From the IMG/VR virus record IMGVR_UViG_3300042542_005523: a stretch of DNA of 64,000 nucleotides; one strand, written 5' to 3'. This document shows, piece by piece, positions 23,501 to 59,811 of the stretch (position 1 is the stretch's first letter; each line of letters begins with the position of its first letter). This DNA is from a virus. Lineage: Duplodnaviria > Caudoviricetes. The notes under the pieces were generated by a model. That model did not search any database, was not told where the DNA came from, and saw only the letters and a list, made by a program, of their open reading frames with translations. A program made the position numbers and the translations under genes.

Positions 23501-23575
23501 AAAAATCCTAATGTGGGGGGAGGAGCGACTTCCGCACAAATAACTACAGTATCATTTAATTTTACACCTAGCTAA
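11528..23575 (+). CDS. Giant (4015-aa) Ser/Thr-rich Gly-X-Y repeat fibre protein
   Basis: About 230-aa unique N-domain, about 3400 aa of G-(S/T)-(S/T/V/A) triplets, an embedded ~120-aa globular domain (~22375-22740), a further short repeat, and a ~140-aa C-terminal domain. Confidence 0.85.
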   Translation: MLTDNLFSGIVDFTDGSLSSLVGITGSATYGSSVITGVDSTIIPGLTAGLSVRALPEGILNPSTTIVSLGSNTVEFSNPVGYTGSANFYIELSSGNYLLNNALFVDVNNIYNVGDIPDYQIGATGGLVISPFAIYTQGRYNDQKNLKAIYEKYIITKVLSRNTVTNRFSAIVTWGFSGSAPTSVNTGQTVLPITQLSPNNLLPPIIDYRAFSYKNLPEGQPFNQEILKVLDSGGSGGSGGSGTSGTSGSSGSSGTSGTSGSSGTSGTDGSSGTSGTDGSSGTSGTSGTDGSSGTSGTSGSSGSSGESGSSGSSGESGTSGSSGSSGESGSSGSSGESGTSGTSGSSGTSGSSGTSGESGSSGTSGESGTSGTSGSSGTSGSSGTSGESGTSGSSGESGTSGSSGTSGSSGTSGESGTSGSSGESGTSGSSGTSGSSGTSGESGTSGTSGSSGTSGSSGSSGESGTSGSSGTSGSSGSAGSSGSTGTSGSSGTGGSSGSSGSSGSSGSTGSSGSSGSSGTSGSTGTSGTSGSSGSSGSSGSSGTSGSSGSVGTSGTSGSSGSVGTSGTSGTSGTSGSVGTSGTSGSSGSSGSSGNSGSSGTSGTSGTSGSSGSVGTSGTSGSSGSSGTSGSSGSTGTSGTSGSSGSVGTSGSSGSSGSSGSSGISGSSGSSGSAGSSGSTGTSGTSGTSGSSGSVGTSGTSGSSGLSGSSGSSGSTGTSGSTGTSGSSGSVGTSGTSGSSGSSGSVGTSGSSGSAGTSGTSGSSGSSGTSGTSGTGGTSGSSGSVGTSGTSGTSGSSGTSGSSGSSGSSGSSGSSGSSGTSGSTGTSGSSGTSGTSGSSGSAGSSGSSGSVGTSGSSGSSGSYGSSGTSGSSGSSGSTGSSGSSGITGSSGTSGSSGTSGSSGSSGSSGSTGSSGTSGTSGTSGTSGSSGSTGTSGSTGTSGSSGSSGSSGSSGLTGSSGTSGSSGTSGSSGSSGSSGSSGSTGSSGTSGSSGTSGSSGSSGSSGSSGSVGTSGTSGSSGSSGSSGSVGTSGTSGSSGSSGSSGNTGSSGTSGSSGTSGSSGSSGSSGSSGSSGTSGSSGTSGSSGSSGSSGSSGSSGSSGSSGSVGTSGTSGSSGSSGSSGVNGSSGTSGSSGTSGSSGSSGSSGSSGSSGTSGSSGSSGSSGSTGSSGSAGTSGSVGTSGSSGSSGSSGSTGSSGTSGSSGSVGTSGSSGSSGSSGSSGSTGSSGTSGNSGTSGTSGSTGSSGTSGSSGSTGSSGSSGSSGSVGTSGSSGTSGSTGTSGTSGSSGSSGSSGSSGSSGTSGTSGSVGTSGSSGSSGSTGTSGSSGSSGSSGSSGTSGSSGSVGTSGTSGTSGSSGSSGSAGTSGSVGTSGTSGSSGSSGSSGSTGSSGTSGSSGSSGSAGTSGSSGSSGSTGSRGTSGTSGSSGSVGTSGTSGSVGTSGTSGTSGSSGSSGSAGSSGSVGTSGTSGSSGSVGTSGSSGTTGTSGTSGSSGSSGSVGTSGTSGTSGTSGSSGSSGNSGSSGTSGTSGSTGSSGSSGSSGSVGTSGSSGSSGSSGSTGSSGSTGTSGSSGTSGSSGTSGTSGTSGSSGSVGTSGTSGSSGSSGSTGTSGTSGSSGSSGSAGSSGSTGTSGTSGSSGSVGTSGTSGSSGSSGSSGSTGSSGSSGTSGSSGSSGSVGTSGSSGSTGSSGSSGSTGTSGSAGSSGSSGSSGSSGSTGTSGSSGTSGSSGSSGSTGSSGTSGSVGTSGTSGTSGSTGSSGSSGTSGSSGSSGSSGSTGTSGTSGSSGSSGSSGSSGSSGTSGSSGSSGSSGSTGSSGSSGSSGSSGSSGTSGSSGSSGSSGSTGTSGSSGSSGTSGSSGSSGSSGSSGSSGSSGSTGSRGTSGSSGTSGTSGTSGSVGTSGTSGSTGTSGSSGSVGTSGTSGSSGSTGSSGTSGSSGSSGSSGSTGSSGSSGTSGSSGSSGTSGSSGSVGTSGSSGSSGSSGSSGSTGSSGTSGSSGSSGSVGTSGTSGSVGTSGTSGSSGSSGSTGSSGTSGSSGSTGSSGSSGSTGTSGSSGTSGSSGSSGSAGSSGSAGTSGSVGTSGTSGSSGSSGSSGSVGTSGTSGTSGSSGSSGSAGSSGSTGSSGSAGSAGTSGVNGSSGTSGSAGSSGSSGSSGSVGTSGTSGTSGSSGSAGSSGSSGSVGTSGSSGTSGSSGSSGSAGSSGSTGTSGSSGSTGTSGSSGTSGTSGSSGSSGSSGSSGSAGTSGTSGSSGSTGSSGSAGTSGTSGSSGSSGSSGSSGSAGTSGSSGSTGSSGSSGTSGSTGSSGSSGTSGSSGTSGSSGSSGSTGSSGSSGSSGSSGSTGSRGTSGTSGSSGTSGTSGTSGSSGSSGSSGSSGSTGTSGSAGTSGSSGSSGSSGSAGSSGSSGSAGSSGSVGTSGSSGTSGSSGSSGSSGSSGSAGTSGSVGTSGSSGSSGSSGSSGSSGSTGSRGTSGTSGTSGSSGSSGSAGTSGSVGTSGSSGSAGSSGSSGSSGTSGSSGTSGSSGSSGSTGSSGSSGSVGTSGSSGSSGSSGSSGSSGTSGANGSSGTSGSSGSSGSSGSSGSSGSAGTSGANGSSGTSGSSGSSGSAGSSGSSGTSGSSGSSGSSGSTGSRGTSGSSGTSGTSGSAGSSGSSGSSGSVGTSGSSGSAGSSGTSGSTGTSGSSGSSGVTGSSGTSGSSGSSGSSGSSGSVGTSGSSGTSGSSGSSGSSGSSGSSGSSGSTGSRGTSGSTGTSGSAGTSGSSGSSGSSGLSGVDGTNGTSGSSGSSGVNGSSGSSGTSGSSGSSGSAGSSGSAGTSGSVGTSGSSGSSGSSGSSGSSGSTGSRGTSGSSGTSGSSGSSGSSGSSGSSGVSGSSGTSGSSGSSGSSGSSGSSGTSGSTGTSGSSGSSGSTGTSGSSGTSGSSGSSGSSGSSGSSGSSGTSGANGSSGTSGSSGSSGSSGSSGSAGTSGANGSSGTSGSSGSAGSSGSSGSSGSVGTSGSSGSSGSAGTSGSSGSSGSSGSSGSTGSRGTSGTSGTSGTSGANGSSGTSGSSGSSGSAGSSGSSGSTGTSGSSGSSGSSGSSGSTGSSGSSGTSGSSGSSGSSGSSGSAGTSGANGSSGTSGSSGSSGSAGSSGSSGTSGANGSSGTSGSSGSSGSAGSSGSSGSTGTSGSSGSSGSSGSAGSSGSTGSRGTSGTSGTSGSAGSSGSSGSSGTSGANGSSGTSGTSGSSGSSGSSGSSGSAGTSGANGSSGTSGSSGSSGSSGSSGSSGSSGTSGANGSSGTSGSSGTSGSSGSSGSSGSSGSSGINGSSGTSGSSGSTGSSGSSGSSGSSGTSGSSGTSGSSGSSGSSGSSGSTGSRGTSGSSGTSGSAGSSGSSGSTGSSGTSGSSGSSGSSGLTGSSGTSGSSGSSGSTGSSGSAGSSGSSGTSGANGSSGTSGSSGSSGSAGSSGSSGSTGSSGSSGSSGSAGSSGSTGSRGTSGTSGTSGTSGSAGSSGTSGANGSSGTSGSSGSSGSAGSSGSSGSSGTSGSAGSSGSSGSSGTSGTSGSSGSSGSSGITGSSGTSGSSGSAGSSGSGGSSGTSGSSGTSGSAGSSGSSGITGSSGTSGSSGSSGSAGSSGTSGSSGSAGSSGISGNDSSNSGRWGYASGGGVPGSGRFSASSSTLSSVIGFAVNDLDINSTDYDEWWLTAEGLVSGGNGIYLQVTQVGSNNIIGLYSVSAINDNTTYWSITVKFIAGSGSMTNAENYTISWVYNGADGPSGSSGTSGSSGSSGSSGSSGIAGSSGTSGSSGSSGSSGSSGSSGIAGSSGTSGSSGSSGSTGSRGTSGSSGSSGSSGSSGSTGSRGTSGSSGSSGTSGSSGSSGSSGSSGSTGSRGTSGTSGTSGSSGTSSTVYVGNANGAGITNGARGSIYLGGTPVAMVAVTAGDYGGGATDFMPGYPMPAGTASKMRVITRSANPALNSLEVYVANATTSTLGAKVTIAAGSAAGVYTTDDGTTVTYSVGDRLYCIAKNPNVGGGATSAQITTVSFNFTPS
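12221..23140 (+). repeat. Low-complexity 9-nt-period (Gly-X-Y) coding repeat
   Basis: Units such as ggttcaagt, ggaacatca, ggtagttca with shuffled synonymous codons; interrupted only by the unique domain at ~22375-22740. Confidence 0.95.
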
Positions 23576-24245: not shown

Positions 24246-24274
24246 GAAACAAAGATACCTCTTAATTGTATAAT
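24246..24274 (+). promoter_or_regulatory. Candidate middle promoter GAAAC-N18-TATAAT upstream of the glycosylation cluster
   Basis: GAAAC 24246-24250, TATAAT 24269-24274. This places the real start at GTG 24290 rather than TTG 24266. Confidence 0.7.
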
Positions 24275-24289
24275 AAGGAAAGGTACTTC

Positions 24290-27052
24290 GTGAAGAAATT
24301 ATTGATAATAACCCCCCACCTATCGACTGGGGGATTACCGCAAGTTACGACAAACAAAATCCAACTTCTAAAGGATGATTACATCATTAAATGTATAGAA
24401 TACGGATGTTATTCATGGGATTTTGTTGTTCAGAAGAACCGTATCAAGAATTTGATCGGTGAGGAAAATCTTATTACATTATGGGATGATAAGAATGTTT
24501 TGATTAATGTTATTGACGAATTCCAACCTGATATTATATCTATGGAGGAATTCCCTGAATTTTTCATGGATAGCAATATCACAAGACAAATCTATAAAAA
24601 GGATCGCCAGTATAAAATCTTTGAAACCACACACGACTCAAGTTTCAACCCAAGATCTAAAGTTTGGCTCCCCGATAAGTTTATCTTCGTTAGTGTGTTT
24701 AATGCTATACAGTATTCAATGTTTGATGTACCTTATGATGTCATTGAATACCCTATTGAAAACAGGGAGAAGAGGAAGGACTTGTTCCAAGAAAAACTTG
24801 GGTTAGATAAGGGATGGAAACATGTTGTTAATGTTGGGTTATTCACTGAAAGGAAGAATCAAAAATACATTTTTGAAATTGCTCGTAAGTTAGAAAATGC
24901 TAAAATTAAATTTCATTTTATTGGTAATCAGGCGGATAACTTTAAGAGTTATTGGGAACCATTGATGAATAATAAACCTGAAAACTGTATTGTTTGGGGC
25001 GAAAAAGATAATGTATCTGAATTTTTGGAAGCGTCTGATTTATTCATGTTCCCATCAAAAGGAGATAGAGATAATAAGGAGTTAAACCCAATTGCTATTA
25101 AGGAAGCCATTGAATATGGTATTCCGATGATGATGTATAATCTTGATGTGTATTGTGGGAAATATGATAAACTATCCCATGTTAAATTTTTGACTGGTGA
25201 TATAGATAATGACGTAAATAATATGATTGATATTTTAAATGTGGGAGGTGTTGATTCACCAGGTGTTGATTCACCAGGTGTTGATTCACCATTCAGTTTT
25301 GTATTTAATAGTGATAATAATGAGATTATCATAAATTATACAGGTAATGAAAAGTTAAATCTTAGTGTTAGTGATTTAAATAATATTATGAATATTTTAA
25401 ATGTGGCAGATATCTATTCCCTATTCAATTTTGGATTCGATGGGGAAACTAATCAGGTTACCATAAATTATACAGGTAATGAAAAGTTAAACTTTAATGT
25501 TAGTATTAGGGACATGACATCAAGGGCTCCTATGTACTGGTTTAATCTACCCTTGGAGTACCCAATATTTTATTGGACAATACCTATACCAATTCACATT
25601 AAGAAATTTAAAGACAATCCTAATTTTAGAGGATTTTTGGTTGAGTTTTATGATGGGGAAACAAACGAATTGGTTTTTGACCACGACTTAATTGTTAATA
25701 GTAATTTCTTCCCAAAAATACCTGAGTTTAAATTCAAACCTTTGGATTGTAACTACATTAATTATTGTGAGTTCTTTGTTGATAGATGTTTTGATGATTT
25801 GAGATTAGAAAATCTTGACACAGTAATTGATATTGGGGCTAATGTTGGACTGTTTGCTAAGTATATGTATTCTGTGAACGCTAAGAAGGTTATCTTAGTT
25901 GAGGCTAATCCATACCTAAGAGAAAGTATTGAATACCATTTAGATACGGATTTAGAAAAATCAGTTATCTATATGAATCCAGTTTATAAAGAACACACTA
26001 AAATTGATTTTAGATTCTCAACGGAAAACTCAACAATTGGTTCAAATGTTTTTGATAGTAACGTGGGAGAATACGGACAACTTAGTAATTTAATCAGTTG
26101 TGACACTATCACTATTGATGATATCTACAAGGATAACGACTATGGTAGAATATCATTATTTAAATGCGATATTGAAGGTGGTGAATATCCTATTTTTGAA
26201 TCAATTACTGATGAACAGATTGGACTAGTTGATAGATTTATGGTTGAGTTCCACGAAAATACCGATGGACAGATTAATATTATACTTGAGAAATTAGATA
26301 GAAATAATTTTGAGTATGACATTATTGTTTATGAGATGGGTCGGAAAATTAGAGCAGATAGAAATTCTAAACATGGTGTTATCTTTGCTAAACCGAAAAA
26401 TGTTAAATTAAGGAAACCAGGTACTTTATCATCATCAGTTTATGATGTTACAAAAAGTTTTGAAGAACGATTGGCGGAATATACAGGAGCACCATATGCG
26501 GTTACTATTGATAACCAAAGTAACGCTCTGTTCTTGGCTTTGTATTATGAAAAGATTACAGGTAAAACAATTAAAATACCAAGTAGAACATATCCTTCGG
26601 TTCCTTGTGAGGTTATCCACGCTGGGGGTAAGGTTGAATTTGAACCTGTTTATGGGTCAACATTAAAAGGACCTTATCAGTTATCACCGACAAATGTATG
26701 GGATTCAGCATTAAGGTTTACTACCGACATGTATATACCAGGAACACATATGTGTTTATCATTTACAGGTCCATACAAACACCTAAAACTTGGTAAGGGT
26801 GGAGCAATCTTAACTGACGACTTTGAGGCTTATAAGTGGTTTAAGAGAGCTAGATATTCAGGTAGAAATGAAGTTTCGTATCATGATGATAATTTTGATA
26901 TGTTAGGATGGAATTTTTATATGATGCCTGAAATTGCGTCAAGAGGATTGTTACTTATGAACCAATTTTATAATATGGACGGGACACCTAAACATAATGA
27001 GGATTTGGAATTACCATACCCTGACTTATCAAAATTTGATGTTTATAAATGA
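24290..27052 (+). CDS. Fusion: GT4 (GT-B) glycosyltransferase + FkbM methyltransferase + DegT-type PLP aminotransferase
   Basis: GT4: LLIITPHLSTGG, VNVGLFTERKNQ, LFMFPS, ELNPIAIKEAIEYG. FkbM: VIDIGANVGLF, FKCDIEGGE. DegT: FEERLAEYTGAPYAV..., WDSA, SFTGPYKHLKLGKGGAILTDD. Confidence 0.8.
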   Translation: MKKLLIITPHLSTGGLPQVTTNKIQLLKDDYIIKCIEYGCYSWDFVVQKNRIKNLIGEENLITLWDDKNVLINVIDEFQPDIISMEEFPEFFMDSNITRQIYKKDRQYKIFETTHDSSFNPRSKVWLPDKFIFVSVFNAIQYSMFDVPYDVIEYPIENREKRKDLFQEKLGLDKGWKHVVNVGLFTERKNQKYIFEIARKLENAKIKFHFIGNQADNFKSYWEPLMNNKPENCIVWGEKDNVSEFLEASDLFMFPSKGDRDNKELNPIAIKEAIEYGIPMMMYNLDVYCGKYDKLSHVKFLTGDIDNDVNNMIDILNVGGVDSPGVDSPGVDSPFSFVFNSDNNEIIINYTGNEKLNLSVSDLNNIMNILNVADIYSLFNFGFDGETNQVTINYTGNEKLNFNVSIRDMTSRAPMYWFNLPLEYPIFYWTIPIPIHIKKFKDNPNFRGFLVEFYDGETNELVFDHDLIVNSNFFPKIPEFKFKPLDCNYINYCEFFVDRCFDDLRLENLDTVIDIGANVGLFAKYMYSVNAKKVILVEANPYLRESIEYHLDTDLEKSVIYMNPVYKEHTKIDFRFSTENSTIGSNVFDSNVGEYGQLSNLISCDTITIDDIYKDNDYGRISLFKCDIEGGEYPIFESITDEQIGLVDRFMVEFHENTDGQINIILEKLDRNNFEYDIIVYEMGRKIRADRNSKHGVIFAKPKNVKLRKPGTLSSSVYDVTKSFEERLAEYTGAPYAVTIDNQSNALFLALYYEKITGKTIKIPSRTYPSVPCEVIHAGGKVEFEPVYGSTLKGPYQLSPTNVWDSALRFTTDMYIPGTHMCLSFTGPYKHLKLGKGGAILTDDFEAYKWFKRARYSGRNEVSYHDDNFDMLGWNFYMMPEIASRGLLLMNQFYNMDGTPKHNEDLELPYPDLSKFDVYK
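25247..25291 (+). repeat. Perfect 15-bp tandem repeat x3 (GVDSP)
   Basis: ggtgttgattcacca at 25247, 25262 and 25277. Confidence 0.95.
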
Positions 27053-27675
27053 TAGTTGGATTCAATGAATATAAACACAAGTATCAATTTAATGTTATAG
27101 GTGTAATTCATGTTGGGGCTCATGTTGGTCAAGAATATAATGAATATATTGAAACATTTGGTTTAATCCCTACATATTGGTTTGAACCAATACCACATGT
27201 TTATAAAGAACTATCAAAAAATTTAGATGGGAAACCTAACACATTTTATTATAATGTTGCGATAGGTGAAAAAATTGGTATACATAAAATGTATCTTGAT
27301 GATGGTAACGGACAACAAAGTTCATCGTTATTAAAACCAAAAGAACATCAAAATTTTTATCCCCATATCAAATTTAGTGAAGAAAACACTATTAATATTA
27401 CCTTGAATACATTAGATTTTTATGGTATAGATAGTTGTAATGTTTTAGTTTTAGATACTCAGGGGTATGAGTTAAATGCTCTTAAGGGTTCAATTAATAC
27501 CTTAAAGAATATTGATTATATATTCACAGAATTTAATGATATTGAAATGTATGATGGTTGTCCATCAATTGAACAACTTGATGAATTTTTACAACCTTTT
27601 GGGTTTTACAGACAAGAAACATGGAATGTTGATGGAGTATGGGGTGATGCATTTTACTTAAAAAAATATGATTAA
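27049..27675 (+). CDS. FkbM-family methyltransferase
   Basis: GVIHVGAHVGQE, WFEP, NVAIG, LVLDTQGYEL, IFTEF motifs. Confidence 0.85.
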   Translation: MIVGFNEYKHKYQFNVIGVIHVGAHVGQEYNEYIETFGLIPTYWFEPIPHVYKELSKNLDGKPNTFYYNVAIGEKIGIHKMYLDDGNGQQSSSLLKPKEHQNFYPHIKFSEENTINITLNTLDFYGIDSCNVLVLDTQGYELNALKGSINTLKNIDYIFTEFNDIEMYDGCPSIEQLDEFLQPFGFYRQETWNVDGVWGDAFYLKKYD

Positions 27676-28255
27676 AAAAGCTTTTATCGGTAATGGGGGA
27701 CATTTGAGAGAGGTAATCGCTCATACGAGATATGATGTTACTAGATTTGTTGAAGACGAATACTTCAACGGGGAACATAATACATTACCGTTATCGCAAT
27801 TCGATCCAAAAGAGTATTCTATTATGATTGCAATTGCTGACAGTCAGGTTAGAGCAAGAATTCAAAAATCATTGCCCGAAGACACCAGATATTTTTCATT
27901 CATCGATCCATCGGCAATTCTTTTGGATAGAAATATTGTAATCGGTGAAGGTTCATTTATTGGTGCAAATTGTGTAATAACTACTAATGTTAGTATTGGT
28001 AATCATTCAATTTTAAATAGAAATGTTAATATCGGACATGATTCGGTAATAGGTGATTTTTTTAGTGCTATGGCGGGGTCCGTAGTGTCAGGGAACGTTT
28101 CAATTGGCAATAATTGTTATATGGGTAACAATTCATCAATCCGTGAAAAAACAACTATTTGTGATGATGTGGTAATTGGGATGAATGGAAGTGTTGTTAA
28201 GAATATCGATAAACCTGGAACTTATGTTGGAGTTCCTGTTAATAAAATTAAATAA
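27668..28255 (+). CDS. Sugar O/N-acyltransferase, NeuD/PglD-like (hexapeptide repeat)
   Basis: FIGNGGHLREV, IAIAD...R, then hexapeptide repeats (IGEGSFIGANCVIT, IGNHSILN, IGHDSVIGD). Confidence 0.85.
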   Translation: MIKKAFIGNGGHLREVIAHTRYDVTRFVEDEYFNGEHNTLPLSQFDPKEYSIMIAIADSQVRARIQKSLPEDTRYFSFIDPSAILLDRNIVIGEGSFIGANCVITTNVSIGNHSILNRNVNIGHDSVIGDFFSAMAGSVVSGNVSIGNNCYMGNNSSIREKTTICDDVVIGMNGSVVKNIDKPGTYVGVPVNKIK

Positions 28256-29991
28256 TGGAAAAATTACTTTCGGTTATAGTTCCGGCATATAATTTTGAAA
28301 AATACCTTGAAGAGTGTATAGATTCAATTTACAACCAAAAAATTATCTACGGATATGAGGTAATTGTTAGAGATGATTGTTCAAAAGATAATACTAAAGA
28401 TGTTTTAGTTAAACTAAAAGAAAAATACACCGATTTAAGAGTATTAAATGGTGATGTTAATTTGGGAGCGTTAGAAAATATAAGAACTTTATTAGATGCT
28501 TGTACGACAAAATATATCGCATATATTGATGGTGATGATTATTTTGACAATTATACAATTTTGAATGAAGAGGTTGAATTTTTAGAGAATAGCCCAAATT
28601 ATAGTATGGTATGTACCGGAACTAGATATTTGTATCCTAACGGGGCAAGAGTACCAGTAGTAACTGAGTTATTTATTAGCTCATTTCTTGACGATGTTAC
28701 AACGGATGACTTACTTACAATCAATCACGCTTCATTTGCGAGAGTGTTTAGAAACATACCAAATTTAATAAAAGATTACTTCAAAAATCTACCCTATGTT
28801 GATTGGCCACTTAACTATGAAATTAGTAAACATGGTTTAATTAAATGTATTCATAAGTGTGGTGGAATTTATAGAATATCTAATGATGGTATGTTCTCAA
28901 ATGTGTCTGAAGAGGAAAAAAACAAAAAAAATTCAATAGTTATTAATGAACTTAAAAGACAACATCTTAAAAATGATTTCAAAACAATAACTATAGTTGA
29001 TTGTTTTATTCATAATGAAAACGTTTTAGGTAAATTGGAGTTATGTATAAATAACTTAAAAAAATATAATCATACAATACTTTTGGTATCTAATACAATT
29101 GTGCCTGAACATATAATAAAAAATGTTGATTATCATCTATATAATTCTAATAATATTCTTTTTGAGGGTGAGTATACTGATTCAGAGCCAGTTGTATTTT
29201 GGAAAAAAGTCAATGGATTAACAATTTACGAAGTTATTAATACAATACAAAAACATGGATTACCTGTTATGGTTAATCTATTTAATTCATTGGACTTATG
29301 TAAATCACTTGGATTTACTCACTTCCAAAGAATCGAAGTTGATGATTTATATACTGACGAAGGTTATGAACATATGAGAAGTGTTCCTTTGATTTGTTCT
29401 GAGAAAAATAAAAAGGGTGTGTTCTATTTTAATGAAGGTAAAGATGTATCATTTCACTATTTTTATTGCGAGATAGAGTATTTCCAACAGATAATAAATA
29501 GAGTTAGTTGTGAAGAAGATTATAAAAATTATTTATTAACTCACGGATATGGTACTGATTTCATAAATGTTGAAAAATATCTATACGATAACATAAACAG
29601 GAATGATCCCGGTTTATTAATAAGAAAGGATGGTGAGGAAGAAATGAACTCTGATTTTTACGGAACATTATGGAATACAGAAACTACAGGTAGTAACGTA
29701 TCGTCTAAATTTAGAGGATGTTCAAGTAAACTTTATAAGATATTAGGACAAGAGCCTATAATGTTATTATCTTATAATTATAATAATTTTAGGTCCGAGA
29801 GAAAAATAATTGTAAATTACGTGGATAATACTTCTGGAGTGTTTTATCACGGTTTAGATAATTACGGACATTGGTCATTTAATATTTTTGAAAATGAAAT
29901 TGAAAAAATATTAGTATACGATAGTCAAACTGACGAATTTTTATATGAAATAATAAACGAAAACATTGTTGATTATATCGTTTTTTTATGA
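28255..29991 (+). CDS. GT2 glycosyltransferase with additional C-terminal domain
   Basis: LSVIVPAYNFEKYLEECIDSI, VRDDCSKD, YIAYIDGDDY. Confidence 0.85.
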   Translation: MEKLLSVIVPAYNFEKYLEECIDSIYNQKIIYGYEVIVRDDCSKDNTKDVLVKLKEKYTDLRVLNGDVNLGALENIRTLLDACTTKYIAYIDGDDYFDNYTILNEEVEFLENSPNYSMVCTGTRYLYPNGARVPVVTELFISSFLDDVTTDDLLTINHASFARVFRNIPNLIKDYFKNLPYVDWPLNYEISKHGLIKCIHKCGGIYRISNDGMFSNVSEEEKNKKNSIVINELKRQHLKNDFKTITIVDCFIHNENVLGKLELCINNLKKYNHTILLVSNTIVPEHIIKNVDYHLYNSNNILFEGEYTDSEPVVFWKKVNGLTIYEVINTIQKHGLPVMVNLFNSLDLCKSLGFTHFQRIEVDDLYTDEGYEHMRSVPLICSEKNKKGVFYFNEGKDVSFHYFYCEIEYFQQIINRVSCEEDYKNYLLTHGYGTDFINVEKYLYDNINRNDPGLLIRKDGEEEMNSDFYGTLWNTETTGSNVSSKFRGCSSKLYKILGQEPIMLLSYNYNNFRSERKIIVNYVDNTSGVFYHGLDNYGHWSFNIFENEIEKILVYDSQTDEFLYEIINENIVDYIVFL

Positions 29992-30755
29992 TCGGATTAA
30001 CTATAACCACCTGTAAAAGAATTGATTTGTTTGAAAAGACAATATTAACATTTGTAAGTGAATGTGAAGATTGTAATTCAATTGATGTCATAATTCATTA
30101 CGATGATTCATCATCTTTGGATGATAGAAATAAAATGTTTACATTATTGAATACATTATTTACTGACACTTTAATAATATCTAAAAGATTTAATCCAAAT
30201 TCGTTTAACACTAATCGAAGACATTTAGAGATAATGAAAAAATGGAAAGAAGACATAAAATTTTTTAATGTGGATTATGTTTTTCATTTAGAAGATGACT
30301 GGTTATTTGAAAACAAATTTAGTATCCAAGAGGGTGTTGAATTATTAAAGAATAATGATGAAATTGCTATGGTTGGATTTTCATGGAAAAGAAAGATATT
30401 CCCGAAAGAATTATTTGAACCAAGGATTATTGGTAATTTTTGGGAGTGGTATTATTCTGATAAACATTATCTGAATGAACCTTTGTTTAATGATACGGTT
30501 GAAGAAACTTTACACGCAGATAAAGGAATGTGGATTAAATATATTAATTGGCCTTACTTCGGATTTAGACCGGCAATACATGATGTTAATAAATTAAATC
30601 AAATTGAAAATTTTAACGATAATATGGATTCTTTTGAGTTGGAATTTGCAATAAGGTTTGCAAAAAAATTCAAATCGTTTTTACATTTGGAAAAAATTTG
30701 TTATCATATTGGTGATGAAAATTCATCATATAATTTAAATAATTCTTTAAGATAA
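29988..30755 (+). CDS. GT-A fold glycosyltransferase (GT2-like)
   Basis: ITTCKR, HYDDSS, YVFHLEDDW (DxD-like), HIG motif. Confidence 0.7.
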   Translation: MIGLTITTCKRIDLFEKTILTFVSECEDCNSIDVIIHYDDSSSLDDRNKMFTLLNTLFTDTLIISKRFNPNSFNTNRRHLEIMKKWKEDIKFFNVDYVFHLEDDWLFENKFSIQEGVELLKNNDEIAMVGFSWKRKIFPKELFEPRIIGNFWEWYYSDKHYLNEPLFNDTVEETLHADKGMWIKYINWPYFGFRPAIHDVNKLNQIENFNDNMDSFELEFAIRFAKKFKSFLHLEKICYHIGDENSSYNLNNSLR

Positions 30756-31327
30756 TGGATTATAATTTTTTATGGGTACCTAAGACCACTTATCATAGGT
30801 CAGCACAAAGTCAGTTTGTTGTTGATGTTTTTCCTAAAATATTAAAAAATTTTGAATTGATAATTGAAATTGGAACATTTACAGGAGCGTTCACTTTATG
30901 GTTGTCTGAAAATAACTCTGATAGTTGTAAAATAATCTCTTACGATATTAATCCTGATTATTGTGAAGTTAATAATCTTAAAGATACCGAATTAAGAATT
31001 GGAGATTGTTTTGATATTGATGTTATGAAAGATATTCGTGATCTAATTAACAATTCGGGTAGAACTCTTTTTTTATGTGACGGAGGGGATAAGGAACTTG
31101 AGTTTAGATTATATTCAAAGTACTTGAAAAAGGATGATGTTATAATGCTCCACGATTATTCACATAGTGATGAAGAGTATAATATTATTAAACAAAAAAT
31201 AAACTGGCCAACAAATTCAGAATCACACTATAAGAATATTGAAAGATACTTACCTGAACTTAATTTAAGTACATATATGTATGATGATTTTAAACAAGTT
31301 TTATGGGGTTCGTTTATAAAAAATTGA
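30755..31327 (+). CDS. Class I SAM-dependent methyltransferase
   Basis: IIEIGTFTGA, ISYDI, IGDC, LFLCDGGDK, IMLHDY. Confidence 0.7.
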   Translation: MDYNFLWVPKTTYHRSAQSQFVVDVFPKILKNFELIIEIGTFTGAFTLWLSENNSDSCKIISYDINPDYCEVNNLKDTELRIGDCFDIDVMKDIRDLINNSGRTLFLCDGGDKELEFRLYSKYLKKDDVIMLHDYSHSDEEYNIIKQKINWPTNSESHYKNIERYLPELNLSTYMYDDFKQVLWGSFIKN

Positions 31328-31328
31328 T

Positions 31329-32048
31329 ATGAATTATAAGATTAAATTAGTTCATTTACAGACAACACAGAATGAACATAGAGAAAAACTATCACGAAAA
31401 TCTATACAACAAGTAATACCTTATGGCATTGAATATGTTTTGCATCAGAACGAGCTGTATACCTCCTTACCTCCAGTTCATACAAGTGTTAGACCACATA
31501 ATGTTAGGATCGGTAAGTATGAAGATGTTAATGACCCTGAATATGGGAACGCATTAACTCCAGCTCACTACGGATGCTTTGAGGCTTTTAAAATTGGTAT
31601 CCTATCAGAATTTGATAATGATTTAGATTTCTTAATTGTCTGTGAGGGTGATTGTATAATAGAAGTACCCATTGAAGAATTTATAGATAAAGTTAATTGT
31701 GTATGTGGTATTGTTAATCAGGAAGATGTTTCTTATTTTTCATTTGGGGATACCAAAACTTTAGATTATGGGTGGCATCAATCAGATGTTGTTAGAGAAA
31801 TACCAAATCAGGATTTATTGTTTATTACTAATAAAATAATTGGTTTACAATGTGTTATGTTTTCAAAAAAATCACGTAAAATAATTATGGATCAATTAAG
31901 AACACATAGATGGGATTGTGCTGACACATTTTTTAATATGATATGTGGTGAACAAAGATTAACTATGGGTATTTTGAAAAAGAGAATAACAACACAAGTG
32001 GACGGAGAATCATTCATTGATAAAGAGTATAAAGTTTTTACAAAATAA
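31329..32048 (+). CDS. Probable glycosyltransferase (GT25-like/GT-A)
   Basis: AHYGCFEAF...LIVCEGDC resembles the GT25 GCxxSH...xEDD layout; cluster context. Confidence 0.5.
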   Translation: MNYKIKLVHLQTTQNEHREKLSRKSIQQVIPYGIEYVLHQNELYTSLPPVHTSVRPHNVRIGKYEDVNDPEYGNALTPAHYGCFEAFKIGILSEFDNDLDFLIVCEGDCIIEVPIEEFIDKVNCVCGIVNQEDVSYFSFGDTKTLDYGWHQSDVVREIPNQDLLFITNKIIGLQCVMFSKKSRKIIMDQLRTHRWDCADTFFNMICGEQRLTMGILKKRITTQVDGESFIDKEYKVFTK

Positions 32049-32049
32049 T

Positions 32050-32595
32050 ATGGCACACGAACAACAAAAGAATTTTTTTAAGAGGGTTAAAGATAAATAC
32101 CCAAGATATTTCACGGATGTAAAAGTTTTAGATATTGGTTCTTTGGATATAAATGGTTCAATAAGAGATTTATTTAATTACCCATTTTATTACGTTGGAT
32201 TAGATCTGGCACCTGGGAAAAATGTTGATGTGATTTGTCCTGGACATTTATATGATTCTGGATTTCAGTTTGATGTTGTTTCATCGGGTGAATGTTTTGA
32301 ACATGATATGTATTACGCAAGAACTATACAGAATATGGTTAGACTCCTTAAGTCTGGTGGTTTAATGGTTTTTACTTGTGCGTCAACAGGGAGACATGAG
32401 CATGGTACATTAAGAACTACTCCTGATAACGCACCTTTCTTGGGTGATATTAGTGAAAAGTGGGCAAATTACTATAAGAATTTAACTGAAGATGATATTA
32501 GGTCAGTTATTGATGTTAATGATATTTTCAATGACTTTGGATTTGAATATGAACCAGTAACTTGTGATTTATATTTTTGGGGGATTAAAAAATGA
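32050..32595 (+). CDS. SAM-dependent methyltransferase (type 11-like)
   Basis: VLDIGSLDING, VGLDLAPGKNVD, FDVVSSGECFEHD, LLKSGG. ATG 32050 (MAHEQQ) is preferred over 32017. Confidence 0.85.
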   Translation: MAHEQQKNFFKRVKDKYPRYFTDVKVLDIGSLDINGSIRDLFNYPFYYVGLDLAPGKNVDVICPGHLYDSGFQFDVVSSGECFEHDMYYARTIQNMVRLLKSGGLMVFTCASTGRHEHGTLRTTPDNAPFLGDISEKWANYYKNLTEDDIRSVIDVNDIFNDFGFEYEPVTCDLYFWGIKK

Positions 32596-33287
32596 TTGAT
32601 ATAGATGTTATTTGTCTTACAAATACTATTTCCGATGACTTATATTGGATGACTCGTCGAACATTAATGACCATACATGATTCTGAAAAAGATTATAAAT
32701 TTCATATTCATTTAATAGAAACAAATTCTGAAAGTGGTTACGATTATTTAGATATTGTTGAAAATTATGTAAAACCAAATGAAAAATTTAATTACAATAG
32801 ATTTTTAAATCATTCCTATCCGTATGTTAAACACGATTGGGTTATTATAACTAATAATGATGTGAGATATGAACGAGGTTGGTTTTCAAAAATAATTGAT
32901 GTATATACTAAAAGACCTGATGTTGAATCTTTTTCACCTAAATGTCCGATACTTTATTCAAAATATTTTTTTGATGATTTTTTAGGAGGTGATTTAGATT
33001 TTCATGAGAGTGTTGGAACTAGCGTACATCTAATGGGTTGGTCGTTAATTATGAAAAAAAGAGTATTTGATATTGTTTATCCTTGGGATGAAAACTTTGA
33101 CATGTACTACCAAGATAATGATTATGCTGAAATTTTATTAAAAAATAACATTAAACACGGTTTGGTTAGGGACTCAATAGCGACTCATTTAGAATCACAA
33201 ACTATAAAATATAAATTTAATTCAAATACAATTGATAATCTTAGAGTAAAAAATTATTTTTACAATAAATGGGGAAAAGAAATTTAA
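32592..33287 (+). CDS. GT2 glycosyltransferase
   Basis: FNYNRFLN, VIITNNDV, WDENFDMYYQDND, ATH motifs. Confidence 0.8.
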   Translation: MIDIDVICLTNTISDDLYWMTRRTLMTIHDSEKDYKFHIHLIETNSESGYDYLDIVENYVKPNEKFNYNRFLNHSYPYVKHDWVIITNNDVRYERGWFSKIIDVYTKRPDVESFSPKCPILYSKYFFDDFLGGDLDFHESVGTSVHLMGWSLIMKKRVFDIVYPWDENFDMYYQDNDYAEILLKNNIKHGLVRDSIATHLESQTIKYKFNSNTIDNLRVKNYFYNKWGKEI

Positions 33288-33288
33288 T

Positions 33289-35424
33289 ATGAAAATTACA
33301 CAAGTAACACCAGGAATTATTACGATACCTCCAAACGGTTGGGGGGCAGTTGAAAAAGTTATATGGGAATATTATAACAACATTAAAGAATTAGGACACG
33401 AATGCGATATAAGATATCTTAATGATACTAAGGGTAGTAATAGTGATATTGTTCACATTCATATGGCTAATTTGGCAATTGAAGCTGCTAATCAAGGGAT
33501 ACCCTATATTTTTTCATTACATGACCACCACGTTGTTTATTATGGTAAGAAGTCATCTAACTACCAACAAAATTTAGAAGCGATTAAAAGATCAGTAATA
33601 TCTTTTACACATGCTGAGATTTTGGTAGACTATTTTGATGAAACAGATAAGTTGTTCTATCTATCCCATGGTGTTAATACCGGGTTCTTTAAAAATAATA
33701 ATCCAAAAAGAACTGAACATAAACTATTGTGCTTGGCAAATAATGGTATCGGAGGTGATTCAACGTATGATAGAAAAGGATTTAGGTATGCTATCGAAGC
33801 GGCAATAAAATTGGATTTACCAATTACGGTTGCTGGTCCGGAAAACAATAGAATATTCTTTGAACACCACAATGACTTATTAAATTATGATAAGCTAACT
33901 TTAATGTTTTCAAATCCAAACGAAGAACAGATATTAGAACTTTATAAAAGTCATTCTATATTCTTACACCCGTCTATATTGGAGGCAGGACATCCAAACC
34001 TTACATTACTTGAAGCGGTATCTTGTAATATGCCAGTTGTTGGTACTTACTCGGGTTCACAAAAAATTGAAGGAATGGTTGTGGTTGAAAGGGATGTAAA
34101 TCAAATTGTTAATGGAGTTAAACAAGTAATTGATAATTATGATTTATATCTAAATAACACTGAATTAGATAGACAAAAATACGATTGGAGTGTTATTACA
34201 AAGAGAATGGTTAGAATTTATGGAGACCTTATGGATAGTAAGAAAAATTTAAATAGTCTTGAAACCAAACAAAAATTTGATAGAGTGTTTGAAAATACAG
34301 AAATTAAACCAGTGGAAATGGTTGAAAAAATTGAGATAATTAACCACTATATAAACGGAGCGTTAGTTGAAATTAAAGGAAATACCGATAAAAAATATTT
34401 GGTTGAGTTTTGGAACCAAAATGGTGAATGTGAATATCGTGAGGAGATTGGTTGTAATATGTGGGTTAAACTAAACAAGAAATATTTTGATGAGTATACT
34501 TTAAAAGTTTATTCTGACGGTCACTTGATTAGTGAAAAGAAATATAATGCTGAGAATAAAAGAGTTTATATTGCCTTAGATTCGAAATCTTTGGGAGACA
34601 CTTTTGCTTGGGTCCCATACGCTGAGGAATTTAGAAAGAAACATAACTGTAAGGTTGTTTGTTCAACATTCTTTAATGATTTATTTGTTAAACAATATCC
34701 TGAAATACATTTTGTTCACCCTGGTAGTATTGTTGATAACCTATATGCGATGTATGAGATAGGTTGGTTTTATGACGGTGATAATGTTAAAATGGATAGA
34801 CATCCAAGTGATTTTAAATTAGGTCCGTTACAAAAAACTGCCACAGATATTTTAGGGTTGGAATATAAAGAAGTTAAACCTTTAATTAAAAATCCTAACA
34901 AGTTAAAGAAAAAAAGAGTTGGATTAGGCATTCATTCAACTGCTCAGTCTAAGTATTGGAATAATCCAAAAGGCTGGCAAGATGTTACTGATTATTTGAT
35001 TTCACTTGGATATGAGGTGATTATCTACTCAAAAGAAGAAGATGGGTATATGGGTAATTTTTATCCAAAAGGTGCTAAACAAAACCCTCCTGACTCAATC
35101 TATAAACTTATTGAAGAACTGTCAACATGTGAATTCTTTATAGGTATATCAAGTGGTATTTCATGGGTGACCTGGGCGTTAGACATACCGACAGTATTGA
35201 TTTCTGGATTTACTGAAGAGTTTAATGAACCTTATGAGAATGTGTATAAGGTTAGTGCTCCTGAAAATACTTGTAGAGGATGTGCAAATAAGTTTAGATT
35301 AGACCCAGGTGATTGGAACTGGTGTCCTGTAAATAAGGGAAATGAAAAGATGTTTGAATGTTCTAAAAAGATAACATCTGAAATGGTGATAAATGTAATT
35401 AAAAGAGAGGGATTAGCAAAATGA
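33289..35424 (+). CDS. Fusion: GT4 glycosyltransferase + TibC/AAH-like (autotransporter O-heptosyltransferase family) protein glycosyltransferase
   Basis: N-half: IPPNGWGAVE, RKGF, FLHPSILEAGHPNLTLLEAVSC (GT4). C-half: YIALDSKSLGDTFAW, FIGISSGISWVTWA, LISGFT, CRGC...WCP...FECSKKI four-Cys metal site. Confidence 0.8.
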   Translation: MKITQVTPGIITIPPNGWGAVEKVIWEYYNNIKELGHECDIRYLNDTKGSNSDIVHIHMANLAIEAANQGIPYIFSLHDHHVVYYGKKSSNYQQNLEAIKRSVISFTHAEILVDYFDETDKLFYLSHGVNTGFFKNNNPKRTEHKLLCLANNGIGGDSTYDRKGFRYAIEAAIKLDLPITVAGPENNRIFFEHHNDLLNYDKLTLMFSNPNEEQILELYKSHSIFLHPSILEAGHPNLTLLEAVSCNMPVVGTYSGSQKIEGMVVVERDVNQIVNGVKQVIDNYDLYLNNTELDRQKYDWSVITKRMVRIYGDLMDSKKNLNSLETKQKFDRVFENTEIKPVEMVEKIEIINHYINGALVEIKGNTDKKYLVEFWNQNGECEYREEIGCNMWVKLNKKYFDEYTLKVYSDGHLISEKKYNAENKRVYIALDSKSLGDTFAWVPYAEEFRKKHNCKVVCSTFFNDLFVKQYPEIHFVHPGSIVDNLYAMYEIGWFYDGDNVKMDRHPSDFKLGPLQKTATDILGLEYKEVKPLIKNPNKLKKKRVGLGIHSTAQSKYWNNPKGWQDVTDYLISLGYEVIIYSKEEDGYMGNFYPKGAKQNPPDSIYKLIEELSTCEFFIGISSGISWVTWALDIPTVLISGFTEEFNEPYENVYKVSAPENTCRGCANKFRLDPGDWNWCPVNKGNEKMFECSKKITSEMVINVIKREGLAK

Positions 35425-35690
35425 AAAGCGTAAATTTACCAGAGGAAATCCTGTTAGAAATTCAGGATTTATTAGCTAGAATTAACTATTCTAAAATGGA
35501 TTTAGGTGAAGCCCACCTAGCAGTTTCTAATTTTGAAAAAGAATTGGAAAATTTAAAATCGGAGAGAGAAAAAAAGATAGCTGTCTGTGTAGATCTAGAA
35601 GAGGAGAAGACCAGGCTAGTGATGAGAATAGTCGAGACCTACGGGGAAGGAGATCTTGATCTTAACAGTGGCAAGTATTTCGTAAAGTAA
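35421..35690 (+). CDS. Small coiled-coil hypothetical protein
   Basis: 89 aa, heptad-like core, C-terminal YGEGDLDLNSG. Confidence 0.65.
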   Translation: MKSVNLPEEILLEIQDLLARINYSKMDLGEAHLAVSNFEKELENLKSEREKKIAVCVDLEEEKTRLVMRIVETYGEGDLDLNSGKYFVK

Positions 35691-58236: not shown

Positions 58237-59811
58237 ATGGCTGGTTTTATAGATAACGAAAATGGTAATCCGGTATTTCAGAGGATTAGGGAATCTGTTA
58301 AGTCGATCTCTAAGTTCGGTATGAAATACGAGGACATGGTGATTAAGAACTCCATGGCTGTTGGCGCTACTGAAGCTGCTTTCATTAATCAGAACAAAAC
58401 AAACGTTCCTGATGAGAATATGATGTATAGTCTTGCGAAGCAAGATACTATGGTCAAACAGTATATCTCTTATTTCGACAAGGATTATAAGGGAAAGAGG
58501 GATTATCTTAGGAAATTCTCTCTTAACCCAGAGATAGAAGGAGTTCTTGATATTGTTTGTGACGAATCCATAAACTACGACCCTTCTAATTATTACGCAT
58601 ATCCCGATTTTCTAGATATAACTACTCTAAAAGAAAAAACAAGAGAAAAGGTTTATGACGTTTTTAGAAAAATATATGACATCTGGGGATTTAGCGATGA
58701 TATAACAGCATGGCAATTCTTTAGACAATTCATGGTGGACGGATTCCTTGCATTTGAAATAATCTGGGACAATAGGGGGAAAGAGATAATTGGATTTAAA
58801 GAATTGGACGCTACTTCTTTAATACCTAGCGTAGAAAAACAACCAGACGGAAGACATGTCAACGTTTGGATACAATTTCCGAATGACCCTAAAAAGACAA
58901 GAATGCTATATGACTCCCAGATCATATACATGTCTTATGCTAAGGGAAATTCAGTTTCCAGATTAAGTTATGTTGAGAGATTAATTAGACCTTATAATAC
59001 CCTAAGAATTATAGAATACACTAGGGTAATTTGGTCAGTGATGAATGCTTCATTCAAGCTTAAAATGACCGTTCCTGTTGGATCAAGATCACCTCAGAAA
59101 GCTATGCAGACCTTGGGTGAACTTATGAGTATCTATAAGGAGGATATTAGCTTGAGCGATGATACTGGTGAATTGCTAGTTGACGGAGCACCTAAGATAC
59201 AATTCTATAAGAATTATCTGATACCACAGGGCCAAAACGGTCAACCTACAATTGAGCCCTTGACAATGGAGGGACCGAACTTAAATGATCCTGCCCCTCT
59301 TGCATATTTCTACGATAGATTCATAGAGGAATCTAAAATACCTGCTACAAGATTTAAGGGGTTAGATGGATCTTCTAGTGCAACATATTCCAACACTGCG
59401 GATGGCCTGGACAAGGAAGAGGTAAGATTTAGTAAGTTCATAAGTAGATTGAGAACCAATTTTCAGGATATCATTATAAAGCCACTTTGGTTACAAATAT
59501 GTAAAGACAATCCGGAATTAGAAAAAGATCTAGTTTTTAAGAGCCAGCTTGGACTTAAGTACATCAGTGAGAACCCTTTTAGGGTAAACCAGGAGATGGA
59601 ATTGATCACCAAGAGAAAAGAAAGCGTAGATTCGCTAGCTCTTATAATGGAAGACGACGATAAACCTTATTTTTCGCAGACTTACTTAATTGAGAATTTT
59701 CTCGGACTTACACCTGCAGACATTAAAGCTAACAAGATAGCAAAAGAAAAGAATGCCAAGAAGAAAGAGAAGGAAGGCGGGGAGGAAGAAGCACCAGAAG
59801 TTACTTTATAA
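58237..59811 (+). CDS. gp20: Portal protein, paralog 1
   Basis: LRKFSLNPEIEGVLDIVCDE, FRQFMVDG, SYVERLIRPYNTLRIIE, IQFYKNYLIP, ESKIPATRF, EEVRFSKFISRLR (gp20 pattern); 524 aa. Confidence 0.88.
   Translation: MAGFIDNENGNPVFQRIRESVKSISKFGMKYEDMVIKNSMAVGATEAAFINQNKTNVPDENMMYSLAKQDTMVKQYISYFDKDYKGKRDYLRKFSLNPEIEGVLDIVCDESINYDPSNYYAYPDFLDITTLKEKTREKVYDVFRKIYDIWGFSDDITAWQFFRQFMVDGFLAFEIIWDNRGKEIIGFKELDATSLIPSVEKQPDGRHVNVWIQFPNDPKKTRMLYDSQIIYMSYAKGNSVSRLSYVERLIRPYNTLRIIEYTRVIWSVMNASFKLKMTVPVGSRSPQKAMQTLGELMSIYKEDISLSDDTGELLVDGAPKIQFYKNYLIPQGQNGQPTIEPLTMEGPNLNDPAPLAYFYDRFIEESKIPATRFKGLDGSSSATYSNTADGLDKEEVRFSKFISRLRTNFQDIIIKPLWLQICKDNPELEKDLVFKSQLGLKYISENPFRVNQEMELITKRKESVDSLALIMEDDDKPYFSQTYLIENFLGLTPADIKANKIAKEKNAKKKEKEGGEEEAPEVTL

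Follow-up and report, generated by a model that had tools for sequence, protein, structure and literature searches.

Results

A GT4–BAHT fusion gene in a phage genome

The DNA analyzed here, a stretch of 64,000 nucleotides (nt; hereafter the window) from the IMG/VR virus record IMGVR_UViG_3300042542_005523, is, to judge from its genes, from a distant T4-like phage. A giant open reading frame (ORF; 11528–23575) and ten contiguous genes (24266–35424) sit between a gp15-like gene and the neck genes. The last of the ten, which is the final gene of an 11-kb glycan cassette, is the subject of this study. It encodes a GT4 glycosyltransferase domain fused to a domain resembling TibC and AAH, the heptosyltransferases of the BAHT family, as an earlier note, made from the letters of the sequence, had claimed. 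The gene and its parts are the following (coordinates refer to the window):

33289..35424, + strand: GT4 + BAHT (TibC/AAH-like) fusion glycosyltransferase gene, 711 amino acids (aa), ATG start (TIGR04414, Pfam GT1 and GT9, AlphaFold model)
33289..34242, + strand: N-terminal GT4 (retaining GT-B) domain, residues 1–318 (PF00534, PF13692, Foldseek, invariant columns)
34327..34548, + strand: flattened β-barrel domain, residues ~347–420, predicted counterpart of TibC 1–97 (model strands 348–418, start of the TIGR04414 match)
34549..35421, + strand: BAHT catalytic GT-B domain with thumb region and iron-finger insertion, residues ~421–711 (phmmer, Foldseek)
34597..34599, + strand: codon of Asp437, position of the TibC catalytic base D110 (alignment)
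35107..35109, + strand: codon of Leu607, position of TibC Arg-286, the adenine N1 contact (alignment)
35272..35361, + strand: putative iron-finger cysteines C662, C665, C679, and C691, corresponding to TibC C339/C342/C358/C370 (alignment)

When the protein was scanned with the NCBIfam models, the equivalog TIGR04414 (“autotransporter strand-loop-strand O-heptosyltransferase”) matched residues 368–706 over profile positions 27–373 of 374, with 266 bits (curated cutoff 200; E = 4.9e-79). Among PDB sequences, TibC (4RAP and 4RB4) was the sole match retrieved by phmmer (E = 3.4e-50; residues 391–705 versus TibC 62–384), the BAHT part being ~30% identical to TibC/AAH. Pfam recognized Glycos_transf_1 (PF00534) at residues 162–287 (38.1 bits; cutoff 26.4) and, weakly, Glyco_transf_9 at residues 536–663 (23.1 bits). 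The AlphaFold2 model, based on 29 full-length homologues (mean pLDDT 86.5), consists of a GT-B fold (residues 1–317), a helical linker, an eight-stranded barrel (348–418), and a second GT-B fold reaching to the C-terminus. When this predicted model was submitted to Foldseek, all TibC chains ranked top (E = 5e-28; TM 0.82, or 0.80–0.83 across the chains, normalized to TibC; ~375 columns), and the N-terminal half resembled the retaining GT4 enzymes BshA, MshA, PimA, and PglA (E ~1e-13; TM 0.62–0.67). By sequence and predicted fold, the C-terminal half is a complete TibC/AAH-type unit comprising β-barrel, GT-B catalytic domain, and a putative four-Cys iron finger. Both the profile search and the structural comparison had been proposed in the earlier note as checks of its assignment, and both bore it out. 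The motifs from which that note had started are located at residues 434–438 (SLGD(T)), 617 (FIGISSGISW; nt 35137), 637 (LISGFT; nt 35197), 662 (CRGC; nt 35272), 678 (WCP; nt 35320), and 689 (FEC; nt 35353); its positions for the three Cys motifs were exact, but SLGD lies at nt 34588, so that “~34561” was ~27 nt early.

The same scan bears on an alternative reading, in which the cassette serves superinfection exclusion by remodelling the host surface (lipopolysaccharide [LPS] core, O-antigen, or capsule), the C-terminal domain being a lipid-linked heptosyltransferase. Glycosyltransferases in the tail-fibre regions of myophages have been interpreted as modifiers of the host O-chain (PMC7029224), and the weak GT9 match, as well as a GtrB-like GT2 within the cassette, would agree with such a role. 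However, the models for LPS heptosyltransferase I and RfaC reached E values of only 0.13–0.14 on the same 711-aa protein, and in view of the value for the BAHT model an LPS-type GT9 identity was rejected. The best match is thus a BAHT with all four Cys aligned, and not a GT9 LPS heptosyltransferase without the Cys site, the outcome that the earlier note had considered fatal to its assignment. Furthermore, the β-barrel and the iron finger, which are specific to protein-modifying BAHTs, are present in the predicted model, and the linkage to repeat proteins described below also argues against modification of the host surface, which we regard as quite improbable.

The catalytic and iron-binding residues are conserved, and the adenine contact is replaced

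In TibC, Asp-110 is the catalytic base, Thr-226 and Lys-230 contact the β-phosphate, Trp-305 contacts O4 of the heptose, Cys-339, 342, 358, and 370 bind Fe(III), Phe-265 and Val-266 form the tip of the thumb, and Phe-368 is also listed as functional (PMC4358343). Arg-286 contacts N1 of the adenine, which was argued to give ADP specificity, and the R286A exchange abolishes or largely diminishes activity; Pro-300 sets the selectivity for D,D-heptose, with Ser at that position in AAH (PMC4358343). The phage enzyme was aligned with 239 phage/metagenome-type homologues and three bacterial BAHTs, one of which adjoins AIDA-I. D437, which matches D110 (Ala in the D110A variant 4RB4), was invariant in all relatives (239/239), and the conserved catalytic Asp in SLGD anticipated by the earlier note was thus present. 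T551 and K555 (β-phosphate), W626 (heptose O4), and F689 (TibC F368) were likewise invariant across the 239 sequences. The four-Cys arrangement, which had been noticed before, aligned with TibC Cys339/342/358/370 and was kept in 238 of 239 relatives, which rules out a chance pattern of cysteines; iron binding is predicted from this alignment. At the thumb tip, the hydrophobic residues Y587 and M588 were found, although the second position is gapped in 60 of 239 sequences and the model is without a clean hairpin there; in TibC/AAH-type enzymes, the thumb is a β-hairpin and the protomers assemble into a dodecameric ring. In the GT4 domain, R162-K163-G164 as well as E232 and E242 were invariant, the two Glu being separated by nine residues as compared with seven in the E-x7-E motif.

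The position of Arg-286 is occupied by Leu607 in the window and by V (97), L (75), T (52), I (12), or Arg (2) among the 239 relatives, whereas all three bacterial reference BAHTs retain Arg. Cellular genomes were scanned as well (one genome per prokaryotic species), which yielded 80 loci. In these loci, the residue was I, V, M, L, or T in every homologue with at least 40% identity to the window domain; classical BAHTs (≤39% identity) retain Arg, and divergent low-identity homologues from metagenome-assembled genomes (MAGs; L121, L128, L129, L131, and L166) have Thr or Ala. By clade, the residue is I, V, M, or L in the Methylococcales/Polaromonas group and Arg in the Arenicellales group. At the position of Pro-300, Ser was found in the window and Gly or Ser throughout the clade. 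Thus, one defining feature of BAHTs, Arg-286, is missing here and across the phage-type clade. The pairing with an autotransporter of the AIDA-I/TibA type is missing, too: the neighbours in the window are glycan enzymes and virion genes, whereas classical loci have AIDA-I adjacent.

A giant Gly-X-Y protein is encoded upstream of the cassette

Upstream of the cassette lies the candidate substrate of the fusion enzyme:

11528..23575, + strand: proposed acceptor, 4,015-aa repeat protein (translation, composition, triplet phase, Pfam Collagen)

Ser accounts for 44%, Gly for 31%, and Thr for 12% of this protein. Between residues 233 and 3619, 1,129 Gly-X-Y triplets follow one another with the phase never broken, and 45 more are present at residues 3737–3871. 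X is Ser in 751 and Thr in 330 triplets; Y is Ser in 910, Thr in 81, Ala in 55, and Val in 46, with the Ser at Y being the most conserved residue of the repeat. At the DNA level, the repeat units have diverged (60–90% matches) while Gly never varies, which indicates selection on the triplet frame. Pfam Collagen (PF01391) matched the C-terminal part (E = 1.2e-18). If a triple helix is formed, it could yield a fibre of up to about 1 μm (our own estimate, using 0.29 nm per residue). The non-repeat termini matched no Pfam or PHROGs family, so the place of the fibre in the virion has to be judged from gene order only; with a gp15-like gene on one side and a gp13/14-like gene on the other, it may be part of the neck or the whiskers.

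The GC content of the giant gene (0.47, with a strong skew of G over C) differs from that of its surroundings (0.30–0.37). Long antisense ORFs within the gene, e.g., 14110–21546 on the − strand (2,478 aa), were regarded as by-products of the repeat composition.

Same-clade enzymes adjoin genes for Gly-Ser/Thr-Ser repeat proteins

In the cellular loci, BAHT-like genes adjoin genes for proteins of 100–330 aa with the phage-type repeat (e.g., GTSGTSGTSGTS... or GSSGSSGSS...), usually at a distance of 44–380 bp. Such pairs were found in Methylococcales (two isolates, Methylobacter luteus IMV-B-3098 and Methylobacter sp. sgz302048, among them), in Polaromonas and Burkholderiaceae, Arenicellales, Acidiferrobacterales, and in one Binatia MAG. 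The partner proteins bear a predicted N-terminal Sec or lipobox signal peptide, in which they would resemble the autotransporters that are heptosylated in the cytoplasm. For counting, a partner was required to have eight or more triplets, to have Ser/Thr at no fewer than 70% of its X and Y positions, and to be encoded within 1.5 kb. By this measure, a partner gene was present in 24 of 42 loci, from five or more orders, whose enzyme is at least 36.5% identical to the window domain; of the 38 loci with a classical BAHT, a single one had such a gene (Fisher P = 7.5e-8, a value that, like the other P-values, overstates independence because of the kinship among loci). Across the same-clade loci, 28 partner genes lay in the near 117 kb, versus 5 in the further 534 kb (1.1 expected near the enzyme gene from the density in the far flanks). 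The pattern covers several orders and two states of residue 286. A peptide of the type GSSGTS, which the earlier note had put forward as acceptor, is thereby strongly supported from gene neighbourhoods in unrelated bacteria. The cellular pairs sit amid unrelated housekeeping genes (mfd, glcEF, bioC, and thyA), which indicates that they are self-contained two-gene modules. In viral loci, an S/T-rich Gly-X-Y gene was present within 10 kb in 24 of 75 cases and immediately adjacent in seven.

Examples of the two-gene module are L097:8917-11116, L113:9983-12077, L099:9917-11909, L103:9959-11558, and L123:8465-11847, among others, from Methylococcales, Burkholderiales, Arenicellales, and Acidiferrobacterales. 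In certain Arenicellales loci, two or three repeat genes lie beside a stand-alone BAHT-like enzyme.

In a maximum-likelihood tree of 102 domains, the deepest split (100% SH-aLRT) separates the classical BAHTs from all phage-type and Gly-Thr-Ser-linked enzymes. The classical side comprises AAH and the enzymes of Salmonella, Paraburkholderia, Negativicutes, and Acetobacteraceae, none of which is linked to such a repeat. The best reading of these sequence data is that the phage enzyme belongs to a BAHT subfamily that is sister to the classical one and whose acceptors would be Gly-Ser/Thr-Ser repeat proteins instead of autotransporters; for this subfamily, the word “autotransporter” in the name of the family is a misnomer. 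That the fusion might nevertheless be a classical BAHT, which heptosylates an AIDA-type autotransporter of the host with host ADP-heptose, is what automatic pipelines imply when they name such proteins after the TIGR04414 equivalog, the cutoff of which is exceeded. Its place in the sister clade, the missing Arg-286, and the lack of an autotransporter among the annotated neighbours, be it in the window or in the same-clade cellular loci, make this very hard to credit.

The cellular matches nearest to the phage enzyme (50–58% identity; ORFs of 727–960 aa) are L093, L094 (on a 254-kb “Bacteroidetes” MAG contig), L095, and L096. Their contigs resemble phage sequence that was mis-binned, and the Bacteroidota label of two of them may be a hint as to the host.

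The cassette is shared between unrelated phages

The viral record closest to the window by k-mers (G001) carries an orthologue of the fusion with 72–74% identity, and orthologues with 92–93% identity were found on nineteen other viral contigs. One of the latter (G002; 240,759 bp, about 82% complete) was taken as a whole for comparison, which delimited the following region:

24291..35401, no strand assigned: horizontally shared module, 86.5–90.6% nt identity to G002 211310–222256, flanks unrelated (blastn, tblastn)

All ten cassette genes are 87–98% identical to those of G002 at the aa level, whereas the other ORFs of the window have either no counterpart or one with 24–31% identity. The GC content of the module (0.30) can be set against that of the window backbone (0.37) and of G002 overall (0.32). 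The cassette is, by these sequence comparisons, a mobile module shared by two otherwise unrelated phages. G002 encodes exactly one Gly-X-Y protein in 240 kb, which is S/T-rich, 4,772 aa long, and encoded upstream of the cassette at a distance of 28 kb. Matches to (G-S/T-S/T)6 were counted in five phage records with the cassette; each had between 6 and 477, all on one strand, and the reversed-pattern control gave 0.

These data also bear on whether other virion proteins (capsid, tail tube, or other fibres) are the targets, as in mycobacteriophages, with the giant repeat protein being a coincidental neighbour. Modification of capsids and tail tubes by phage glycosyltransferases has been described (Freeman 2023, cited in PMC10877033), the fusion gene lies within a structural module, and a Gly-X-Y gene occurs within 10 kb in fewer than half of the viral loci (the 24 of 75 given above). 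Conversely, a giant S/T-rich Gly-X-Y gene was present in five of five cassette-bearing records and is the sole such gene in a 240-kb genome, and the same-clade cellular enzymes adjoin the same type of repeat. We therefore regard other virion proteins as unlikely targets.

The orthologue in G001 (P0003; L001:763-3615) is 76–98% identical to the window enzyme through residue 500, i.e., in the GT4 domain, the barrel, and the N-lobe. Its C-lobe (residues 501–711) shows 30–55% identity only, has Arg at the position of Arg-286, and is without the thumb. Judged from the sequences, this looks like a recombinational exchange of the donor-binding lobe between lineages, which would fit a diversifying donor sugar.

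Composition of the cassette and its phage setting

The genes preceding the fusion are listed as follows:

24266..32595, + strand: remaining glycan cassette, eight genes before the 231-aa glycosyltransferase (Pfam, PHROGs, NCBIfam)
32592..33287, + strand: 231-aa GT2-like glycosyltransferase, ends 1 nt before the fusion gene (phrog_22332)

In order, the cassette encodes a 928-aa protein with GT4, FkbM, and a DegT fragment, an FkbM methyltransferase, a NeuD/PglD-type acetyltransferase, a 578-aa GT2, a protein of unknown function, an S-adenosylmethionine (SAM)-dependent methyltransferase, a second unknown protein, a second SAM methyltransferase, the 231-aa GT2-like enzyme, and the GT4 + BAHT fusion. 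Several of its ORFs had no match in Pfam or PHROGs. In the 928-aa protein (24266–27052), the GT4 match covers residues 173–292 and FkbM residues 522–684; the DegT/PseC-like aminotransferase match spans only profile positions 23–90 of 360, and this domain may be truncated or degenerate. Overlapping the stop codon of the fusion gene is an ORF for an 89-aa predicted coiled-coil protein (35421–35690). An 89-aa ORF is located likewise at L001:3612-3881 and no match was found in G002, which places this ORF in the backbone and not in the cassette.

The phage origin proposed in the earlier note was confirmed by genes for UvsX, gp46/47, a gp15-like protein, a gp13/14-like neck protein, the large terminase, sheath, and portal. 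Using Pfam, PHROGs, and NCBIfam, gp47/gp46 were identified as SbcCD, and a fibre-like protein with an Mtd_N domain, a DNA ligase, and two portal-like genes were found as well. The latter are adjacent (58237–59811 and 59826–61475) and both match the portal family phrog_213 (E = 2e-52 and 5e-62), i.e., a tandem portal duplication.

Hundreds of metagenomic proteins share the fusion

A search of 5.8 billion proteins yielded 1,692 matches at E ≤ 1e-5. The best 120 of these 1,692 are all full-length GT4 + BAHT proteins (52–90% identity) on contigs of up to 354 kb, and many of the 120 bear a third, N-terminal domain, either GT2 (PF00535) or FkbM (PF05050). P0003 is such a case: its N-terminal domain (residues 5–203 of 948 aa; the corresponding ORF in L001 has 950 aa) is homologous to the 231-aa glycosyltransferase encoded directly upstream of the fusion in the window (36% identity; E = 9e-34). 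That the 231-aa enzyme is fused in P0003 is Rosetta-stone evidence that the three activities cooperate. With the BAHT domain alone as query, 2,193 proteins were retrieved at E ≤ 1e-10 (clustered at 90%), on viral contigs of up to 436 kb; both stand-alone forms and fusions (to FkbM, Methyltransf_24, and PF19662) are among them.

In GenBank phages, megablast with the gene and with 8 kb of the backbone gave no match; the full-length fusion was found there only in the 735-kb metagenomic phages LR756501.1 and LR756503.1 (580156–582312), with 42% identity. A BAHT-like domain is also contained in a gene of Microcystis phage Mel-JY01 (PP395634.1, 7330–8403) annotated merely as “methyltransferase FkbM.”

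Discussion

Proposed function of the fusion enzyme

We consider it rather probable (roughly 70%) that the fusion is a bifunctional cytoplasmic protein O-glycosyltransferase, the acceptor of which is, in the window, the 4,015-aa Gly-(Ser/Thr)-Ser fibre. During infection, a nucleotide-activated sugar would be transferred in the host cytoplasm onto the repeat serines of the giant protein by the BAHT domain, with Asp437 serving as base and Thr551 and Lys555 holding the β-phosphate. Elongation and modification of the glycan would follow, carried out by the fused GT4, the adjacent GT2, the methyltransferases, and the acetyltransferase, and would result in a collagen-like fibre with a dense coat of glycans at the neck or tail. 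We infer function throughout from sequence, fold, and gene context, and this includes which protein is the acceptor, which domain acts first, which donor is used, the oligomeric state, and the place of the fibre in the virion.

The order of action could also be the reverse, the GT4 domain initiating (with O-GlcNAc or a hexose on the repeat serines) and the BAHT domain adding a second sugar to the glycan or modifying other serines. GtfA and SdgB are protein O-glycosyltransferases of the GT4 family that act on serine-rich and Ser-Asp repeats. SdgA and SdgB are reported to glycosylate Ser-Asp repeats in staphylococci (PMC3794999), and the GT4 domain of the fusion has invariant donor-binding motifs and a retaining GT-B fold. 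Moreover, BAHT-like genes also occur on their own, with no GT4 attached, which shows that the two activities can be separated. In the cellular loci, however, it is the BAHT-like gene alone that pairs with the repeat protein, with no GT4 nearby, which argues that BAHT alone suffices. Furthermore, every characterized BAHT acts directly on protein Ser, and TibC, which acts in the cytoplasm, modifies Ser but not Thr (PMC4358343). Initiation by the GT4 domain is possible but the less likely order, and initiation by the BAHT domain is preferred.

Several observations weigh against glycosylation of the giant fibre by the BAHT domain as proposed here. Apart from the kinship among the loci mentioned above, ~40% of the same-clade cellular loci are without a partner under the criterion used, although some of these “negatives” are truncated contigs or contain GTA/GTN triplets that fall below the 70% rule (L097, L101, and L104). 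The giant gene lies 9.7 kb from the enzyme gene in the window and 28 kb from the cassette in G002, and at such distances the linkage in phages is one of co-occurrence, not of adjacency. As to the donor, GmhA (TIGR00441) and RfaE domain II (TIGR02199) were not found in the five cassette-bearing phage records, whose completeness does not exceed 82%; there is thus no support for a heptose pathway encoded by the phage. Finally, because Arg-286 is absent, the donor may not be ADP-heptose.

By homology, a heptose donor (ADP-heptose) is still to be expected, with both nucleotide and sugar being uncertain. Proteobacteria produce ADP-heptose for LPS. Since members of the Methylococcales and Burkholderiales, which are Proteobacteria, are likewise without Arg-286, its absence has to be interpreted with caution. 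The genes flanking the cellular pairs were housekeeping genes only, with no sugar-nucleotide genes among them (NCBIfam), and the donor can therefore not be deduced from context. That the donor in this phage may differ had been allowed for in the earlier note; the clade-wide loss of Arg-286 and the swapped donor lobe of P0003 now lend this concrete support.

A wider proposition, which we put forward tentatively, is that of a hitherto unrecognized protein O-glycosylation system that several orders of Proteobacteria have in common with large phages. A TibC-like and probably ring-shaped enzyme would processively glycosylate the serines of collagen-like (Gly-Ser/Thr-Ser)n chains with a donor other than ADP-heptose, in agreement with the lost Arg-286 and the exchangeable donor lobe, and the sugars would take the place of hydroxyproline in stiffening or stabilizing a proline-free virion fibre of up to about a micrometre.

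Relation to known glycosylation systems

The phage enzyme shares with TibC/AAH (TIGR04414; PDB 4RAP and 4RB4) the barrel, the GT-B fold, the four-Cys finger, the catalytic Asp, the Thr/Lys pair, the Trp, and F368, and cytoplasmic hyper-glycosylation of Ser in a repetitive acceptor is likely here, too. It differs in belonging to a sister clade, in having Leu for Arg-286 and Ser/Gly at P300, in being phage-encoded, and in its fusion to GT4 (in relatives also to GT2 or FkbM). The acceptor of TibC/AAH is a β-helical autotransporter passenger, whereas a Gly-Ser/Thr-Ser collagen-like repeat is proposed here.

Among systems with long Ser-rich acceptors, GtfA/GtfB with serine-rich repeat proteins and SdgA/SdgB with Ser-Asp repeat proteins employ enzymes of the GT4 family, which hyper-glycosylate the repeats in the cytoplasm of Gram-positive cocci before export. 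Unlike the system described here, they have no BAHT domain, their repeats are without Gly-X-Y periodicity, and they are not phage-encoded. A closer analogy in gene arrangement is SgtA-BclA3 of Clostridioides difficile, with which BclA glycosylation in the Bacillus exosporium can be grouped: a dedicated glycosyltransferase gene adjoins the gene for a collagen-like (Gly-X-Thr) filament, the hydroxy-amino acids of the repeat are O-glycosylated, and SgtA accepts Ser as well as Thr (PMC7157674). There, however, the glycosyltransferase is unrelated, the donor is UDP-GlcNAc, the repeat is GPT, and the location is the spore surface instead of a phage or a secreted protein of a Gram-negative bacterium. 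Mycobacteriophages are similar in that they encode glycosyltransferases for structural proteins of their own virions (Freeman et al, 2023, cited in PMC10877033). The glycosyltransferase families and hosts are different ones, the targets are capsid and tail tube, and neither a BAHT-type enzyme nor a giant repeat fibre is known to be part of the system.

Full-text literature searches returned nothing relevant that links BAHT/TibC to phages or to collagen-like proteins. The family resemblance as such is already known, as the pipeline of JGI labels such proteins with the TIGR04414 name; the acceptor class, the split into subfamilies, and the phage system are new.

Implications

Up to now, the only role known for BAHT enzymes was the virulence-associated modification of autotransporter adhesins in Proteobacteria. 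To these enzymes, a large sister clade is now added, which automatic pipelines mislabel as “autotransporter” enzymes and to which genomic linkage assigns a new class of acceptors, proline-free Gly-Ser/Thr-Ser collagen-like repeats. This offers a testable account of why large aquatic phages have giant Ser-rich fibres and islands of glycosyltransferase genes, hitherto interpreted in terms of host-surface modification. The hypothesis is directly testable because Methylobacter luteus IMV-B-3098 (locus L097), which is culturable, carries the minimal two-gene module, in which the partner is a GT(A/S)-repeat protein with a signal peptide. If true, virion glycosylation by phages, of which few cases are known, would gain a further one, and a compact pair of enzyme and tag would become available for glyco-engineering.

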